A stretch of 64,000 nt of DNA from Bacteroidales bacterium (GTDB taxonomy: Bacteria > Bacteroidota > Bacteroidia > Bacteroidales > UBA1715): the NCBI GenBank assembly GCA_017516865.1, contig JAFXAU010000026.1, positions 5,220 to 69,219 of the forward strand. The letters run 5' to 3'. A program made the translations under genes and the position numbers. Below the pieces are notes generated by a model. It saw nothing but the letters and a program-made list of their open reading frames with translations. It did no database searches and was not told the DNA's origin. Positions 6,140-62,894 of this stretch are shown here, in pieces. The number at the start of each line of letters is the position of its first letter. The stretch's first letter is position 1.

Positions 6140-7290
6140 TTTACGAGATACAAAGTTTGCCCAAACGGGGCGATGTAGTTTTAGTTGGTTTGTCGGGCGG
6201 CATAGATTCCACGCTGACTGCCGTGATGCTGAAAGAAGCTGGTTGCAAGGTCATAGGCGTTACTATGTCGTTGTGGGACAGCCGTCTCCCGAAAATTGAC
6301 AGCAAAAAAGAATATTGTTTCGACGCAAACGAGTCGATGAGCATTGACGACTGTCGTGCGTTTTGCAAAAAGTATGATATTGAGTATCACGTAGTTGACT
6401 TGCACGAGGAGTACCGAAAAAACGTGTTGGAATATTTCAAGGCGGAGTATCGGGCGGGACGGACGCCGAATCCGTGTATTCGTTGTAATTCCACTATGAA
6501 ATTCGGCACAATGCTGTCGAGCGTGGAAAAATTGGGCGTTGACTACGATTATTTTTGTACGGGACATTATGCGAAAATTGTAAAGCCGACCGAAGGTTTG
6601 TTCGGTACCGAAAACCGTCCGTATATGGTCGCAAGCGCGTCGGACGCTTCGAAAGACCAGTCGTATTTTTTGTATCGCATACCTGGTTCCGTGCTGGAAA
6701 AAGTGCGTTTCCCGTTGGCGGAAATTTCCAAAAAAGAAGTATTTGAATTTGCGAAAAAGAACAACTTGTTTTCTGAAAAATATACTGAAAGTCAAGATTT
6801 TATAGATCCGCAATATTTTGACATTCTGTTTGCCGACAAACCATTTGCCGAAGGCGACATTGTTGATTTGGACGGAAAAGTTTTGGGCCGTCATAAAGGG
6901 ATTGAGCATTACACTATTGGGCAACGGAAAGGACTCGGCGTTGCACTTTCGTATCCTGTCTATGTGCATTCCATTGATGCAGAACGAAATAGAGTAGTGT
7001 TGGCTCCGATTGAGGCGTTGCGTTCGTCATGTTTTATAATCGACGACTGCGTGTGGGCAGGCGGAGTGGAACCGCAGTCGGCTTTCGAAGCCCGTGTAAA
7101 AATTCGGCTTGCGGGAGGTTTGCATAACGCGAAAATCGAAGGAACCAAATCTTCACAACCAGACAATGCCAAATTGTGGAGAATCACGTTCGATGAGCCG
7201 CAAACGGCCGTCACTCCTGGACAGTCGGCGGTGATATACGACGGCGACGTGATTGTGGGCGGAGGAGTGATTGCAAAGGTGGAAAATTGA
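6136..7290 (+). CDS. mnmA: tRNA 2-thiouridine(34) synthase MnmA
   Basis: PP-loop VLVGLSGGIDSTLTA and Cys region NPCIRCN; 384 aa. Overlaps the racemase stop. Confidence 0.88.
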   Translation: MIYEIQSLPKRGDVVLVGLSGGIDSTLTAVMLKEAGCKVIGVTMSLWDSRLPKIDSKKEYCFDANESMSIDDCRAFCKKYDIEYHVVDLHEEYRKNVLEYFKAEYRAGRTPNPCIRCNSTMKFGTMLSSVEKLGVDYDYFCTGHYAKIVKPTEGLFGTENRPYMVASASDASKDQSYFLYRIPGSVLEKVRFPLAEISKKEVFEFAKKNNLFSEKYTESQDFIDPQYFDILFADKPFAEGDIVDLDGKVLGRHKGIEHYTIGQRKGLGVALSYPVYVHSIDAERNRVVLAPIEALRSSCFIIDDCVWAGGVEPQSAFEARVKIRLAGGLHNAKIEGTKSSQPDNAKLWRITFDEPQTAVTPGQSAVIYDGDVIVGGGVIAKVEN

Positions 7291-7305
7291 AATTTACAGA
7301 AAAAT

Positions 7306-8226
7306 ATGTTGATACACGAAATTCAAGCGGAAATACGACGGCTCAAGCGTGAAAAGGGTATTTGCATTTTGGCACACGCATATCAGAGTCACGACATCTG
7401 GGAAGTGGCCGATTATGTGGGCGATTCGTTCGGATTGAGTCAAAAGGCGGCTGAATCCGATGCTGATACGGTTTTAATGTGCGGCGTGCGGTTTATGGCT
7501 GAAACGGTGAAGATTTTGTCGCCGCAAAAACGCGTGATTTTGGCGAATGGCGAGGCGGGCTGCCCTATGGCGGAACAAATTTCGGTGGATTTGTTGCGGA
7601 GTTTAAAAGAAAAATACCCCGACCATACGGTGGTTTCGTACATCAATACAACGATACAATTAAAAACATTGACCGACGTGTGCGTCACTTCGTCGTCGGC
7701 AGTGAAGATTGTGCAAAACATACAAAACGACAAGATTCTGTTCATACCAGATTGTAACTTAGGCAGTTGGGTACAAAAACAAATACCCGAAAAACAATTC
7801 CAGTTTGTTCCCGGCGGTTGTCCCACCCATTTGCTGATTACGCCGAAAAATGTTGAACAGGCACGCCAGAAGCACCCAAACGTATTGGTGCTTGTTCATC
7901 CCGAATGTGCCGAAAAAGTTGTGGAACTTGCTGATTATGTGGGTAGTACCACACAAATAATGGATTTTGCAAAACAAAGTCAGGCAACGGAATTTATCAT
8001 AGGTACGGAAAACAGCATTGTGCAGCATTTGCAGATTGATTGTCCCGAAAAGCGTTTTTACGCGTTGTCGAAAAATTGTGTCTGCCATAATATGAAAATG
8101 ACCACGTTAGGCGATGTGTATGAATGTGTAAGAGGTATCGGTGGCGAAGAAATCACGCTCGATGCCGATACGCTTCGCAATGCCAGACGTAGTATTGACG
8201 AAATGCTCAGGTTGGAAAAGATTTGA
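7306..8226 (+). CDS. nadA: quinolinate synthase NadA
   Basis: 306 aa with ILAHAYQ, VGDS, CGVRFMAETVK and VHPEC motifs typical of NadA. Confidence 0.88.
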   Translation: MLIHEIQAEIRRLKREKGICILAHAYQSHDIWEVADYVGDSFGLSQKAAESDADTVLMCGVRFMAETVKILSPQKRVILANGEAGCPMAEQISVDLLRSLKEKYPDHTVVSYINTTIQLKTLTDVCVTSSSAVKIVQNIQNDKILFIPDCNLGSWVQKQIPEKQFQFVPGGCPTHLLITPKNVEQARQKHPNVLVLVHPECAEKVVELADYVGSTTQIMDFAKQSQATEFIIGTENSIVQHLQIDCPEKRFYALSKNCVCHNMKMTTLGDVYECVRGIGGEEITLDADTLRNARRSIDEMLRLEKI

Positions 8227-58639: not shown

Positions 58640-59683
58640 TTAACTTTCTATCTCAAAGAATACTTTATAAAAACTTTTTCCTCGATTTTCGTCGTAACCG
58701 CGTTCCAAGAACTCAGGACGGGAATGGACGTAGATGTGAAAATTTTTATCAAGTTTGATGACGCTCCGCAAATATCGTTTGGATTTTTTCACTGCGGTTT
58801 CGTCTATGTCGAAACTATTGGGAGCTTCGATTTCGTGAATGCGGCTGTAGTGTTGTTTGAAATTATCGAATGCCTCAATAACTTCTGGATTTCCAATGGT
58901 TTCTTGCGTAAATTGTTTTTCGTCGAATGTCTGGTTTGTTTGGAAGTAGTTCAAAGAATTTTGCAAAAATTTTACTCTTTCATCGTTTTTAACCGATTCG
59001 TTTTGAGCCAAAATCTCTTCGTTGAATTCTTTACAGATTTTCAAAAATGATTCTGTGTTAAAGTATTCATTTTCAATAACTTTTGCTTCGATGAATTTAT
59101 CTATCCAATATACATTGTCGCCTTTTGAACTGTCCTGTGCTTTAATGAGATAGCCATATTCTGGTTCGATATTGAAAATGAAACAGCCTTTTTCTATTTT
59201 TTTGAGGCTGATTCCGCTTTCTGCTTGAAAATTGACTTCGTTTTCGTTTTGGAGAATTTTCAAAAACGTCTCTTTGGATTCGGATTTGAAAAGTCCCACG
59301 GCATCGACCATGTTGTCATCGACCATGCAGTTTGAAAAATACACGACGTAAAATTCGCTGTAAGTCTGGTCGTTTTCGTCGAGTACGTTGTAAAGTTTTT
59401 CAGCTAATTTTATCGATGAACTGTAGAATTCGCCTTTTTGCTGAAAAATACGTGCCACTTCTTCTTTTACGGCAAAACTATCGTCCCTGAAACGGTACAA
59501 TTCCGGAGCCTTGAGAGACAGCGAAAAAAATGAATTTAAAATATACTGTGTCTGTTCGTCAATGAACTGAATTTCGTGTTTTGAATAAAAGTTCTGACGC
59601 TTAGGGTCTTCTTCCGCAGCCGCTTTCATTCCAATTTTATGAATGACAAGCGATTCTATGTTTGCATTTGAAATATCTATCAT
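58640..59683 (-). CDS. nucleoid-associated protein (NdpA/YejK-like, NA37 family)
   Basis: The N-terminal IESLVIHKIG pattern and ~340-aa size are typical of the NA37 family. Own TActTTTG box upstream. Confidence 0.55.
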   Translation of the reverse strand: MIDISNANIESLVIHKIGMKAAAEEDPKRQNFYSKHEIQFIDEQTQYILNSFFSLSLKAPELYRFRDDSFAVKEEVARIFQQKGEFYSSSIKLAEKLYNVLDENDQTYSEFYVVYFSNCMVDDNMVDAVGLFKSESKETFLKILQNENEVNFQAESGISLKKIEKGCFIFNIEPEYGYLIKAQDSSKGDNVYWIDKFIEAKVIENEYFNTESFLKICKEFNEEILAQNESVKNDERVKFLQNSLNYFQTNQTFDEKQFTQETIGNPEVIEAFDNFKQHYSRIHEIEAPNSFDIDETAVKKSKRYLRSVIKLDKNFHIYVHSRPEFLERGYDENRGKSFYKVFFEIES

Positions 59684-59815: not shown

Positions 59816-60808
59816 TTACCGTTTAAACACGTTTTTCAGTTTTTGCACGAGTGATTTTTCCTGTTTTACTTGATATTCCTGAATGAGCGTTGCTACGTAC
59901 TGGCTCATTTCGTCGGCAGACTGGAAACGAAGTTTTTGTGCATTGTAGAAAAATTTCAGCCGAGCTTCGGGCTTGTAGCGCATGGGCGGAGTTTTGAAAA
60001 TGTGCTTTGCCGTTGCTTTTTGGAGCATTTCAAATATCGATTTGTCTACTCGGTGGTGTGGTTTCAACGGGAAAGACAATTGCATGTTCAGAATCAGGTT
60101 TTTGTCGTCGTTTTCGCAAATAAAGGCGTGCTCGCGGGCAAAAGCTTCGAACAACGTTATACCTAAGCTATACAAATCGCAGGAAGCGTTTATCAACGGA
60201 TTTGCTTGCAATACCAATTCGGGAGCCGAGTAATAGAGTGAATACGGTGTTGAAGTAAAACCGAGTATGTTTTGACTGTTGATTTGTGCGTATTCAAGGT
60301 TGAGCAGTTTTACCGTCGGATTTTCTATGTCGATTTGTCCTGCATTGTTGGCGACCAGAAAGATTGTGTTTGGCTGTATTCGCCTGTGTATTATTTTGTT
60401 ATGGTGGAGTGTTTCGAGGGTTTTACAGACTTTTTCGGCAACGGTGAGAAAAAATTTTGTATTTCGTAGATGAGGATAATCGCCGGTAAAAATAACTTGT
60501 TGTAAGTCAATGCCTTGTAAATGCTCACGAATAATATACAGCCCGTTTTCATCGACAATGCAGTCGAATGTTTTTACTAATCCTTCGTCTAATTTATTGA
60601 AACTGAGAAAGATATTTTGTACAAGCTGCAAATGCTGCGGACTTTTAATCAATTGTTTGTTTCTCAAGTAACGAACAATAACGGGCGTTCCGTCCTGTTC
60701 GCACTTTCCACGGAATACAAGACCGAAATCTTCGGCATTTTCGCTTTCTTCGGGTTCCACGAATTCGAAAACGTACGAATGATTCTGTCCGACAAGTCGT
60801 TTTTGCAT
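59816..60808 (-). CDS. protein-kinase-fold protein with degenerate catalytic motifs (putative pseudokinase)
   Basis: The C-lobe is retained (YSAPE, DLYSLGITLFE). However, VAIK is VIVRYL, HRDLKPxN is HRRIQPNT, and DFG is NLE. Confidence 0.65.
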   Translation of the reverse strand: MQKRLVGQNHSYVFEFVEPEESENAEDFGLVFRGKCEQDGTPVIVRYLRNKQLIKSPQHLQLVQNIFLSFNKLDEGLVKTFDCIVDENGLYIIREHLQGIDLQQVIFTGDYPHLRNTKFFLTVAEKVCKTLETLHHNKIIHRRIQPNTIFLVANNAGQIDIENPTVKLLNLEYAQINSQNILGFTSTPYSLYYSAPELVLQANPLINASCDLYSLGITLFEAFAREHAFICENDDKNLILNMQLSFPLKPHHRVDKSIFEMLQKATAKHIFKTPPMRYKPEARLKFFYNAQKLRFQSADEMSQYVATLIQEYQVKQEKSLVQKLKNVFKR

Positions 60809-61345
60809 AAATGAATTGTTTTAGGCAAAAATAAAAAATTTGAATGAGGTTAAAAACAATTCCGTGTAGATGTTAAAAATTTTTTAAATACCTTTTAAAC
60901 GGCTCTACATACGCATTTGAATAAAATCGCTTATTGCATTAAGCGATTTTTGGATAAAAATGGTTATTGTATTAAGCGATTTTTTATAATCGATTCTTAT
61001 TTTGTTATAAGCCAGATAATTATGCTTGCAAGAACACCTGTTGTTAATCCTAGAATCCTTATCTCAGTATTGCGGCGATTTCTGAATTGATTTCTTGTGA
61101 GGAAAGCAAACTGTTTCGTAAAACATTTCCTCTTCCTATTGTGGGAAATTCCGAAAGAAAAGTTAATCGTTTTTTCTTTTTTCGCTCAATAAAATCTCGA
61201 AATTCTTCTGGTGAAAAATCTTTTAGTTGCGCAGAAGTCAACCCCGTACGACTTCTATGTGTCTTACATTTTCAATTGATAACATGTGTATTCTTTTTTA
61301 CGAAAAATAAAAAAATCCCTTACACAACGTATGTAGCAAAATTTT

Positions 61346-61385
61346 TCAAAACAAAAAATCGCCAGTCCGATGAGGATTGGCGATT
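61346..61385 (-). terminator. rho-independent terminator after the PLD gene
   Basis: 12-bp stem AATCGCCAGTCC/GGATTGGCGATT, followed on the minus strand by TTTTTTGTTTTG. Confidence 0.7.
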
Positions 61386-61421
61386 AAAATATAGGCATTG
61401 ATATGGTGCTTTTTGATTTTA

Positions 61422-62240
61422 TCAATAATCGTCATAGTAATCGTCGTAATCATCATAAAAGTCATCATCATAAAAGTCATCATCGTAGTCGTCATCGTAG
61501 AAATCATCATTGTCATCATAAAAATCCTCTTCATCGTCCCAACTGTTTCTGTCATGAAAGCAATCACTACACTCTGGTTTTGCATACGAGATTCCGATAT
61601 CTTCTTCTCCGCATTTGTGACAATAGTTTTCCTTGTAATCGGGATTTTGATAATAACTCCATGTTTCATAACAATCTTCACACAATGGTCTTGATGGATT
61701 GTATGCTATTGGTTTTCTACATCTAATACAAAAGCCAGAATGAGGTACTTTATCATGTGTTTCTTGCTTTTCTCTATTATTTTCGGGGAATAAAAGTAAT
61801 TGGTCTTCGTTTTTTATTGGGTCAGATAGGGAGAATATTTCTGAGCATTCCATCTCACATTTTTCGTAAATTTCATTGTCTTTTGGGTCAGATTTAGAAA
61901 GTCGAGTTCCAAATTCTCTGTTTTTTTCAGATGCTTCATACATATTCATTGATGTAATCACCATCTCTTTTTCGTTATAATAACATTTGCCATGCAAATC
62001 TTCATAGAAATAAAACGAAGCCCAATCTTTTAAATCATGAAATGTTTCCAAATCCATTTTTTTGTTTTTACCCAAAAGGATGGACACTTCAACGCCCCTT
62101 TGTGCCGCTGTCTTTAAACGTTCTCTATACGTTTTAGAAATTTTCAAAAAAGGAGAGACAATAAAGATTTCCTTTTTTGCATATTTTATGATGTCATCAA
62201 TTGCTGAAATAATCCCTTTAGTTGTTAGAAATTCTGCCAT
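61422..62240 (-). CDS. single-HKD PLD-family (Nuc-like) nuclease + zinc-ribbon region + Asp/Tyr/Phe tail
   Basis: HKD-type motif LHGKCYYNEKEMVITSMN (HxK-x4-E-x6-TSxN). Cys pairs CIRC..CEDC and CHKC..CSDC. C-terminal ~39 aa are DDEEDFYDDNDDFYDDDYDDDFYDDDFYDDYDDYYDDY. MAEFLTT start at 62240. Confidence 0.7.
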   Translation of the reverse strand: MAEFLTTKGIISAIDDIIKYAKKEIFIVSPFLKISKTYRERLKTAAQRGVEVSILLGKNKKMDLETFHDLKDWASFYFYEDLHGKCYYNEKEMVITSMNMYEASEKNREFGTRLSKSDPKDNEIYEKCEMECSEIFSLSDPIKNEDQLLLFPENNREKQETHDKVPHSGFCIRCRKPIAYNPSRPLCEDCYETWSYYQNPDYKENYCHKCGEEDIGISYAKPECSDCFHDRNSWDDEEDFYDDNDDFYDDDYDDDFYDDDFYDDYDDYYDDY

Positions 62241-62402
62241 ATAATTCCAAATTATAAGCAAAAATAAAAATTTCTCAATATTTCTACAGTTATAAATCAG
62301 CAAACATCCATGATTGAAAACATTTTGTTAAACATTGCATTTCCCCTCTTGTTTGCACGTCAAATTTTATTATTTTTACCTCACATGTAAATGGAAGGCT
62401 TT

Positions 62403-62894
62403 ATGTATAAAAAACATATTATAGGGTTACTCATTGGACTGATGGTCGGGGTGAATTGTTTCTCGCAAGTTGAGTTGGGAGGAACAATTGGCTTTGGAAT
62501 TACAAACAACTGCATGACAATCGATTTGAATCCCGAAGCGGCTCTTGCATTGGGAACGAACAAAAATTTCAAACTTGGATTTTCACCTTTCTTTATGTAC
62601 AATAAGACCATAGGCAATTCGTATTGGACTGCCATGTACGGTACTCGGGAATTTGTGGAGTTTCACTTCAATTTTAATATTTTCCTTCATGGAGAACTGG
62701 AATCTGCAAAAATTGTGGATTCCGAAGGAAACAAAGCCTCGCTTTTGGCTTTGCCTTTGGGACTTGGCGGAACAACGCACATTTCGGAAAAGTTGGACGC
62801 ATATTTCATGGTGCTGTATGATTTTCTCTATGACGAATCGTGGGCAGTACGTTCGAATCCACAATTCAGAGCAGGAGTACGATATAGGTTATAA
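62403..62894 (+). CDS. small outer-membrane beta-barrel-like protein
   Basis: Signal peptide MYKKHIIGLLIGLMVGVNCFSQ and alternating beta pattern; ends RAGVRYRL. Confidence 0.5.
   Translation: MYKKHIIGLLIGLMVGVNCFSQVELGGTIGFGITNNCMTIDLNPEAALALGTNKNFKLGFSPFFMYNKTIGNSYWTAMYGTREFVEFHFNFNIFLHGELESAKIVDSEGNKASLLALPLGLGGTTHISEKLDAYFMVLYDFLYDESWAVRSNPQFRAGVRYRL

Follow-up and report, generated by a model that had tools for sequence, protein, structure and literature searches.

Among nucleases of the phospholipase D (PLD) superfamily, those with a single HKD unit are represented by Nuc of the Salmonella plasmid pKM101 (1byr) and NucT of Helicobacter pylori (6ehi), both of which are exported proteins. 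To our knowledge, neither of them carries a zinc module or an acidic tail. In the restriction enzymes BfiI and SauUSI, a PLD nuclease domain is joined to a DNA-recognition or motor domain, and PLD nuclease domains are also part of the anti-phage systems DISARM (DrmC) and Mokosh (MkoB and MkoC). Other nucleic-acid-binding proteins carry disordered, strongly acidic C-termini, in many of which an aromatic residue at the tip or close to it is critical for function. Such C-termini compete with nucleic acid for the binding site of the protein itself or dock on partners; HMGB1 is one autoregulatory example. The acidic C-terminal tip of Hfq is also autoregulatory and competes with nucleic acid (PMC5606850), the C-terminus of E. 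coli SSB binds its own OB fold (PMC3936761), and the acidic tail of T7 gp2.5 provides another autoregulatory precedent (PMC12339929). These tails are rich in D and E with one or two aromatic residues, and none of them is located on a PLD nuclease.

Here, we describe a 272-amino-acid protein encoded on the minus strand of a 64,000-nucleotide stretch of a Bacteroidales contig (hereafter the window). The protein combines a PLD catalytic domain with a tandem zinc module and ends in a tail of aspartate and aromatic residues. The explanation that we favor, with a probability of roughly 40%, is that of a PLD-plus-zinc nuclease whose tail autoregulates the enzyme by nucleic-acid mimicry. It is the tail that is new; acidic autoregulatory tails on other nucleic-acid-binding proteins are already established. 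The gene consists of the following parts, in which pLDDT is the predicted local distance difference test score of the AlphaFold model.

61422-62240, minus strand: complete coding sequence of 272 amino acids plus stop, starting with the ATG at 62240
61791-62240, minus strand: PLD-superfamily catalytic domain, residues 1-150, with a single HKD unit (Pfam, AlphaFold and Foldseek)
61944-61997, minus strand: HKD-type motif LHGKCYYNEKEMVITSMN, residues 82-99 (alignment of 114 sequences)
61737-61790, minus strand: variable linker, residues 151-168, partly disordered (pLDDT below 50 for residues 154-164; alignment columns not conserved)
61542-61736, minus strand: tandem four-cysteine zinc module, residues 169-233 (alignment and model)
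61425-61541, minus strand: disordered acidic-aromatic tail, residues 234-272 (translation; pLDDT 45-52)
61449-61484, minus strand: perfect 15-nucleotide unit GATGATGACTTTTAT, encoding DDDFY, in 2.4 copies (Tandem Repeats Finder)

The protein clearly belongs to the PLD superfamily. The Pfam model PLDc_2 (PF13091) matched residues 16-117 with E=1.2e-9 and 38.5 bits, above the gathering cut-off of 27, and the AlphaFold model, which is a monomer built on the alignment of 114 sequences, displayed the PLD alpha/beta sandwich fold for residues 1-150 with pLDDT above 90. The best matches in the Foldseek analysis were Nuc (1byr) and NucT (6ehi), with E=9e-8 and target template-modeling scores of 0.74 and 0.73, followed by the PLD domains of SauUSI, Zucchini and PLD3 and by some non-nuclease PLD folds; the match probability was 1.00 for 1byr, 6ehi, 7clg and 4ggj. 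These results agree with a first-pass annotation, made from the letters of the DNA alone, which described the open reading frame (ORF) at 61422-62240 and its translation as given here and recognized a single-HKD, Nuc-like domain. In the HKD region, H83, K85, N89, S97 and N99 are invariant among the 114 sequences and E90 is conserved in at least 90% of them. The canonical HxK(x)4D(x)6GSxN pattern is varied in this protein, with N89/E90 at the position of the Asp and Thr in place of Gly, and the catalytic His and Lys are intact. The core is under purifying selection, with a ratio of non-synonymous to synonymous substitution rates (dN/dS) of 0.07-0.11.

The protein resembles Nuc and NucT in having one HKD unit, a domain of about 150 residues and the catalytic His and Lys, and by analogy with these enzymes a protein with a single HKD unit should need to dimerize. 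It differs from them in that the sequence identity is only 13-14% and in the replacement of the canonical Asp by N89/E90. The score against the Nuc/NucT equivalog model of NCBIfam (NF010490) was 15.9 bits, compared with a cut-off of 211, and a sequence search of the PDB returned nothing at E<=1. The best NCBIfam and PADLOC matches were to the PLD nuclease domains of DISARM and Mokosh. However, the score against the DrmC model (NF038319) was 30.1 bits as compared to a cut-off of 133, with no drmA, drmB or methylase gene among the neighbors, and MkoB was matched partially, over 64 residues, with 33.5 bits and no helicase gene nearby. Since these scores are far below the cut-offs, the protein belongs to neither family. 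No partner genes of DISARM or Mokosh were found in the window or in 79 homologous loci, and PADLOC-DB v2 contained no full-length match to a defense component, only the partial DrmC and Mko matches. The architecture is similar to that of BfiI and of SauUSI, the PLD domain of which is among the top fold matches, in that the catalytic domain is accompanied by a separate module that probably binds nucleic acid. Unlike in these enzymes, the module is a tandem four-cysteine zinc domain with no counterpart in the PDB, and there is no methyltransferase or helicase partner.

The zinc module contains eight cysteines in four pairs (C171/C174, C187/C190, C207/C210 and C224/C227), all of which are invariant or conserved in at least 90% of the sequences; W194, P185, G211 and R173 are conserved as well. 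The double zinc module with CxxC pairs that had been read from the translation is thereby borne out. Residues 170-235 were modeled with pLDDT above 90 in the full-length protein, and the module modeled alone reached 91.7. The predicted topology is a knuckle, a hairpin and a helix, repeated twice, for which a comparison with PDB folds gave no match better than E=0.59. The Pfam double zinc ribbon model DZR_2 (PF18912) scored 15.7 bits, below its cut-off of 27, despite the eight conserved cysteines. With the zinc module by itself as the query, a word-indexed search produced a single match and was replaced by a profile search of all 1.84 billion representatives, in which 1546 proteins were found at E<=1e-3 and 1065 at E<=1e-10. 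Most of these have the PLD-plus-zinc architecture, whereas others carry the module behind a NERD domain (P0173, P0232 and P0213) or an HNH domain (P0267), and some carry it twice. The fusions to NERD and HNH nuclease domains support a nucleic-acid substrate, and the zinc module most likely binds nucleic acid.

The PLD-plus-zinc core is not unusual but represents a large, uncharacterized family of stand-alone genes. A word-indexed search with the whole protein identified 131 relatives, mostly 220-255 amino acids long and 35-48% identical over 84% of the query, most of which consist of the core and no tail. The family signature is a PLD domain of the MAEFLTT type, a variable linker and the pattern CxRC..PxCxxC..W..NPxYxE..CHxCG..PxCxxC, and every column of it is found in the protein described here. 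In a scan of one genome per species, the family was present in at least 595 species genomes; the matches listed include Bacteroidota, Spirochaetota, Chloroflexota (Dehalococcoidia) and Proteobacteria, as well as the archaeal taxa Asgard, Methanoperedens, Thermoplasmatota and Nanoarchaeota. A scan of JGI metagenomes for close relatives found nothing. The patchy distribution across domains, together with the low content of guanine and cytosine (GC), suggests that the gene has been horizontally transferred. With about 1,500 sequence clusters and no fewer than 595 species genomes, these PLD and tandem-zinc proteins make up a large cross-domain family without a studied member, and the zinc module that they have in common with NERD and HNH nucleases lacks a solved structural counterpart.

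The tail is composed of a W followed by 38 residues, namely 22 D, 9 Y, 4 F, 2 E and 1 N, and ends with ..YDDYYDDY, giving a net charge of about -23 to -24. It had been described as consisting of Asp, Tyr and Phe only; this applies to 35 of the 39 residues, the others being the W, the two E and the N. Tandem Repeats Finder detected periods of 12, 15, 24 and 27 nucleotides in the tail DNA, and there is no comparable stretch elsewhere in the window. How often homologues have such a tail was a question raised by the first-pass annotation, and the answer is that the tail is rare. It was restricted to nine distinct sequences (P0001, P0269, P0270, P0272, P0002, P0271, P0003, P0273 and the fragment P0004), all of which are closely related and derive from metagenomes or metagenome-assembled genomes labeled Bacteroidales, and was present in none of 147 representatives and in none of the 79 genome homologues. 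Thus, the tail is an add-on of one clade and does not characterize the family as a whole. When the tail by itself served as a protein query, 159 word-sharing candidates came up, none of which scored, and this search is uninformative about D/Y/F tails on other protein families. A role of the poly-Asp tail in secretion or in the binding of calcium or minerals was considered unlikely, given that no N-terminus resembling a signal peptide was visible by eye and no secretion domain was recognizable.

Across the clade, the tails are 22-41 residues long with about 60% Asp and about 35% aromatic residues. Alleles of 272 and 267 amino acids differ by exactly one 15-nucleotide DDDFY unit at 61449-61484 (as aligned with L003), which indicates that the suspected slippage-driven variation in tail length is real. 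Between the window and locus L001, synonymous sites are saturated, with a proportion of synonymous differences (pS) of 0.78, yet both tails keep to D, Y and F. Synonymous codons are mixed inside each tail, and one tail allele uses Trp, which is more than one mutational step away from Asp or Tyr. Asn, which the common G-to-A transition would produce from GAT, is rare in the tails, and Gly, His and Val, which together with Asn are the single-step neighbors of Asp and Tyr, are almost absent. Since the Asp and aromatic composition has been retained despite saturated synonymous sites, we conclude that the tail is under selection, which maintains its composition but not its exact sequence.

The tail also reverses the charge of the C-terminal end. 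Homologues without a tail end about 6 residues past the last CxxC, with a net charge after the module of +0.6 on average and +6 at most, as compared to -16 to -23 in the tail-bearing clade. This change of sign, from a mean of +0.6 to -16/-23, points to a tail that works against the binding of nucleic acid and does not promote it. In the favored explanation, the enzyme is a PLD-superfamily phosphodiesterase of the cytoplasm with a single HKD unit and most likely a homodimeric DNA or RNA endonuclease, as are Nuc, BfiI and Zucchini. In a small clade of uncultured gut Bacteroidales, the usual short and slightly basic C-terminal end has been replaced by a disordered polyanionic-aromatic tail, which arose through the expansion of a GAT/GAC/TAT/TTT codon repeat and has been retained by selection on its composition. 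The tail would most likely compete with DNA or RNA for the binding surface of the enzyme, in cis or across the dimer, and this competition would lower a non-specific and self-damaging activity for as long as the tail is not displaced by a better substrate or a competing binder. The analysis establishes the identity of the domains, the conservation of the catalytic and zinc ligands, purifying selection, the disorder and length polymorphism of the tail and selection on its composition, and the nucleic-acid substrate and the dimerization, like any function of the tail, are matters that we infer. By analogy with the tails of Hfq, SSB, T7 gp2.5 and HMGB1, which are likewise disordered and acidic, a regulatory role is plausible, although the 60:35 repeat of Asp and aromatic residues differs from the composition of those tails.

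Protein, structure and literature searches returned no described acidic autoregulatory tail on a PLD nuclease and no D/Y repeat tail, in keeping with the first-pass remark that no described example was known. If the tail regulates the enzyme, this would be the first PLD-family nuclease controlled by a fused peptide that mimics nucleic acid. Such a regulatory tail would be a natural example that is tunable by its repeat, with strains differing by whole DDDFY units, and would offer a simple design principle for restraining a potentially self-toxic nuclease. The practical weight is limited, since the tail occurs in a handful of sequences from uncultured Bacteroidales.

Several observations weigh against autoregulation by mimicry. 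The AlphaFold monomer leaves the tail disordered and undocked, with pLDDT 45-52, so the earlier proposal of auto-inhibition by a DNA mimic received no direct support. The folded core is itself net acidic (-4 for the PLD domain and -4 for the zinc module) and more acidic than in the homologues without a tail, which argues against simple electrostatic docking, and the core shows no sign of a co-evolved basic landing surface. Furthermore, the evidence does not distinguish between DNA, RNA and another phosphodiester as the substrate, and with nine tail sequences only, the comparative power is low.

Since the acidic core argues against intramolecular docking, the tail may instead fit into a basic or hydrophobic pocket on another protein, much like the SSB tip, T7 gp2.5 or gp4, by means of its acidic run and of the aromatic residue that closes it and has a free carboxylate. 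Such a docking peptide would recruit the nuclease to replication, repair or invader proteins, or compete for the clients of SSB; we consider this a serious alternative to the favored explanation, although a less probable one. It is consistent with the finding that the last residue is Tyr in all nine tails, with the endings DDY, FYY and DYY. Also consistent are the C-terminal tips of other family members, such as P0072, which ends with EEENNDAENTLPF (..ENTLPF) and has a PLD domain that is 61% identical and a different C-terminal domain, as well as P0105 (..SDTPF), P0125 (..DEDDEDDLSW), P0075 (..CDDDY) and the Dehalococcoidia paralogue in L073 (..DDIADLPF). Acidic-aromatic tips were found in 6 of 290 family proteins and in 3 of 634 control neighbor proteins (Fisher p=0.03), an enrichment that is based on very small counts, and aromatic last residues are not enriched across the family (9% versus a background of 9.9%). 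The tail is acidic and ends with an aromatic residue, but its DDY ending is not the SSB motif D-D-D-[IL]-P-F and it contains no Pro-Phe, contrary to the initial suggestion of a decoy of the SSB tip. In addition, a docking tip needs 6-10 residues and not 22-41 residues of repeated D and Y, and no partner was identified.

The repeat structure of the tail DNA and the gain or loss of a 15-nucleotide unit between strains raise the alternative that the tail is a tolerated low-complexity expansion, produced by slippage of a GAT/TAT-rich codon repeat and acting at most as a generic solubility bristle. This would fit with its restriction to one small clade, with the predicted disorder, and with the single-nucleotide steps that join D, Y and F (GAT to TAT to TTT) in an AT-rich gene. 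We nevertheless find it unlikely, and a purely neutral expansion in particular, because the composition and the reading frame have been kept across lineages with saturated synonymous sites, the synonymous codons are mixed, one allele has Trp, the single-step neighbors Asn, Gly, His and Val are almost absent, and the last residue is always Tyr.

In the surroundings of the gene, the following features were identified.

61347-61385, minus strand: intrinsic terminator with an 11-base-pair stem containing one mismatch, a 5-nucleotide loop and a U-run (RNA fold)
61062-61285, minus strand: remnant of a conserved 75-amino-acid ORF, the window copy of which is frameshifted by a 1-nucleotide deletion near 61246
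60886-62894: 2.0-kb low-GC block containing an outer-membrane-like ORF of 167 amino acids, the PLD gene and the small ORF, 95.6% identical to contigs with unrelated flanks
62251-62278, minus strand: promoter-like match TTGAGA, 16-nucleotide spacer, TATAAT, just upstream of the ATG (11/12 in the scan)

In the tail-bearing lineages, an ORF of 75 amino acids (MLSIENVRHIEVVTGLTSAQLKDFSPEEFRDFIERKKKKRLTFLSEFPTIGRGNVLRNSLLSSQEINSEIDAILR) is located 100-140 nucleotides downstream of the PLD gene. It is intact in L003 (5785-6012), L169 (8943-9170) and L170, which are mutually 100% identical, and in L167 (8879-9106) and L168 (88%), and its dN/dS of 0.13 indicates purifying selection. Thus, the gap of about 600 nucleotides between the PLD gene and the next gene, which was at first taken to be non-coding, contains what is left of this ORF after a frameshift, whereas relatives have it intact and under purifying selection. 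The small protein matched no Pfam family. Its presence after the PLD gene in three of the four tail-bearing lineages and its absence from all distant PLD-plus-zinc loci, which amount to the same clade distribution as that of the tail, would be expected if the two genes formed a mobile toxin/antidote-like or regulator pair in which the tail mainly contacts the small protein, and so would the occurrence of the low-GC 2-kb block in differing genomic contexts. Against such a pair, which we regard as improbable, stand the terminator between the two genes and the frameshift that is common to the window and L004-L009, seven independent assemblies in which the PLD gene is intact. Moreover, the tail of L001 is found with no 75-amino-acid ORF, and the small protein is about neutral and not basic and belongs to no recognized family.

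Still less probable, in our judgment, is that the polyanionic tail serves as a DNA-mimic decoy that keeps the nuclease switched off, and which DNA-binding proteins of an invader, such as a phage SSB, a polymerase or proteins directed against DNA mimics, would pull off and thereby release the nuclease. If this were true, the protein would be an immune switch with guard and decoy in a single polypeptide, in which the infection itself releases the nuclease, and the SSB-like ..DLPF and ..TLPF tips seen occasionally elsewhere in the family would represent simpler forms of this device. The PLD protein might function as a defense nuclease. The genomic context offers weak support for the defense-island setting that had been envisaged: the genes at the window locus include lysA, ftsK, lolA and miaA, and only a minority of 136 immediate neighbors of the homologues are of defense or mobile type. 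These are HNH_2 (three), McrBC (two), NERD (two), DNA methylases, a type I specificity subunit, YhcG and DUF932, and the remainder are ordinary metabolic genes.

That the enzyme is a phosphodiesterase or transferase acting on lipids or other small molecules and not a nuclease is very unlikely. In its favor are weak matches to cardiolipin synthase and phosphatidylserine synthase models and the PssA structures among the fold matches. Against it, those scores are far under the cut-offs (25.7 versus 290 bits and 15.1 versus 314 bits), there is no membrane segment, the protein has a single 150-residue HKD unit like Nuc, and the accessory domains are common to NERD, HNH and PD-(D/E)XK-type nucleases.

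The search for a conserved partner in the 79 homologous loci was negative, with no neighbor family in more than three loci; the largest neighbor cluster, of three loci, consisted of paralogous PLD genes. The lack of a recurring neighbor indicates that the PLD gene is truly stand-alone, as first annotated. The window shares a fixed gene order with six further assemblies of its lineage: lysA, an outer-membrane-like ORF of 163 amino acids, the PLD gene and a putative pseudokinase gene, then the gene for the NA37 nucleoid protein, an ORF of 214 amino acids, ftsK and lolA. Such an arrangement does not constitute a defense island. Within the tail-bearing clade, the gene was found in four different contexts: between lysA and the pseudokinase gene in the window lineage; with GH94 and a cyclase-HD gene; beside PAP2 and the gene for a winged-helix/PD-(D/E)XK-like nuclease, with an MNT gene further away; and flanked by LepA at one end and by RelB and an MNT-HepT pair at the opposite end. 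The 2.0-kb block of the window has relatives in L003, L169 and L170, in which lysA and the pseudokinase gene are replaced by GH94 and the cyclase-HD gene in the flanks. The sharp junctions of the block suggest a cassette-like transfer or rearrangement. Near the end of the shared block, at about 60930-61000 of the window, there are two adjacent copies of about 33 nucleotides, AAAAATCGCTTAATACAATAACCATTTTTATCC and AAAAATCGCTTAATGCAATAAGCGATTTTATTC, the second of which forms a hairpin.

The kinase-like gene at 59816-60808 on the minus strand matched Pfam Pkinase with E=5e-20 as well as mad6, PD-T4-6 and MkoA in PADLOC. In the translation, VAIK has become R, HRD reads HRR and NLE stands in place of DFG, so that the catalytic Lys, the Asp of HRD and the Asp of DFG are all absent. 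The product is probably a pseudokinase, as previously labeled. The gene is followed by that of the NA37 nucleoid-associated protein at 58640-59683, and it is only in the window lineage that this pair adjoins the PLD gene. A connection between the Tyr-rich tail and the adjacent kinase was rejected, because the kinase is without these three catalytic residues and is a neighbor in one lineage only. At the corresponding position in L169 (9559-11534), there are genes for a guanylate-cyclase-plus-HD protein of 443 amino acids and for a protein of 213 amino acids of unknown type. In L167, a protein of 290 amino acids is encoded directly upstream of the tail-bearing PLD gene (7017-7889). It contains two winged-helix-like repeats of the type found at the C-terminus of a plasmid-borne PLD clade, with a match to ANT/KilAC, and its C-terminal part is PD-(D/E)XK-like. 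Downstream of the PLD gene in the same locus are the 75-amino-acid ORF, a gene for a 189-amino-acid protein with a C-terminal hydrophobic segment and a gene for an MNT-type nucleotidyltransferase.

The start of the PLD gene is well defined. Residues M1, A2, F4, L5, T6 and T7 of the N-terminal MAEFLTT are nearly invariant in the alignment, and since this N-terminus is common to 114 homologues, the ATG at 62240 is the true start. A longer ORF from an upstream TTG at 62303 was rejected as the start of the gene in view of the same homologue N-termini. The identical protein (P0001) is encoded on 13 contigs. As had been observed, the gene is AT-rich, with a GC content of 33% as compared to 42% in the window and 44-46% in the flanking lysA and ftsK genes. 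A terminator of its own had also been proposed, and we located it as a hairpin at 61357-61385 followed by a U-run at 61347-61356, with a centroid structure of -15.1 kcal/mol; a simple consensus scan missed this terminator at 61347-61385. The stem is kept in L003, in which the loop differs. The promoter-like sequence at 62251-62278 is a consensus match only, and Bacteroidota promoters differ from the sigma-70 type. An Rfam scan of the PLD gene and the downstream gap gave no credible match.

The plasmid-borne PLD clade is a sister clade that is about 32% identical over residues 1-143, in which a winged-helix-like C-terminal domain replaces the zinc module. Its members share the PLD type (MAKFLNT...NLHAKCY...ITSLNLYEFS) and are of similar size (231-233 amino acids). 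They differ in having no acidic tail and in the winged-helix-like C-terminus, which matches the N-terminus of the PADLOC candidate PDC-S69. The sister clade was found on 620 plasmids, 576 of which are conjugative (Klebsiella 378, E. coli 109 and Salmonella 77), and also on seven Vibrio phages of about 10 kb with the annotation "DNA repair protein". Across plasmids and phages, its members are annotated either in this way or as "phospholipase D family protein", and the clade appears to be uncharacterized (L098, 5001-5702; L099, 5001-5696). The winged-helix-like domain also occurs beside DUF2726 and PD-(D/E)XK-like domains. The swapping of accessory domains among PLD, NERD, HNH and PD-(D/E)XK-like catalytic domains is the main basis on which the substrate of the PLD-plus-zinc proteins is considered to be nucleic acid. 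Finally, tandem paralogous PLD or PLD-plus-zinc genes were observed in Dehalococcoidia and Desulfococcaceae (L073, 5130-6741; L078, 5198-6750; L079, 5248-7724). Since a single-HKD enzyme must dimerize, the products of such pairs might form heterodimers.

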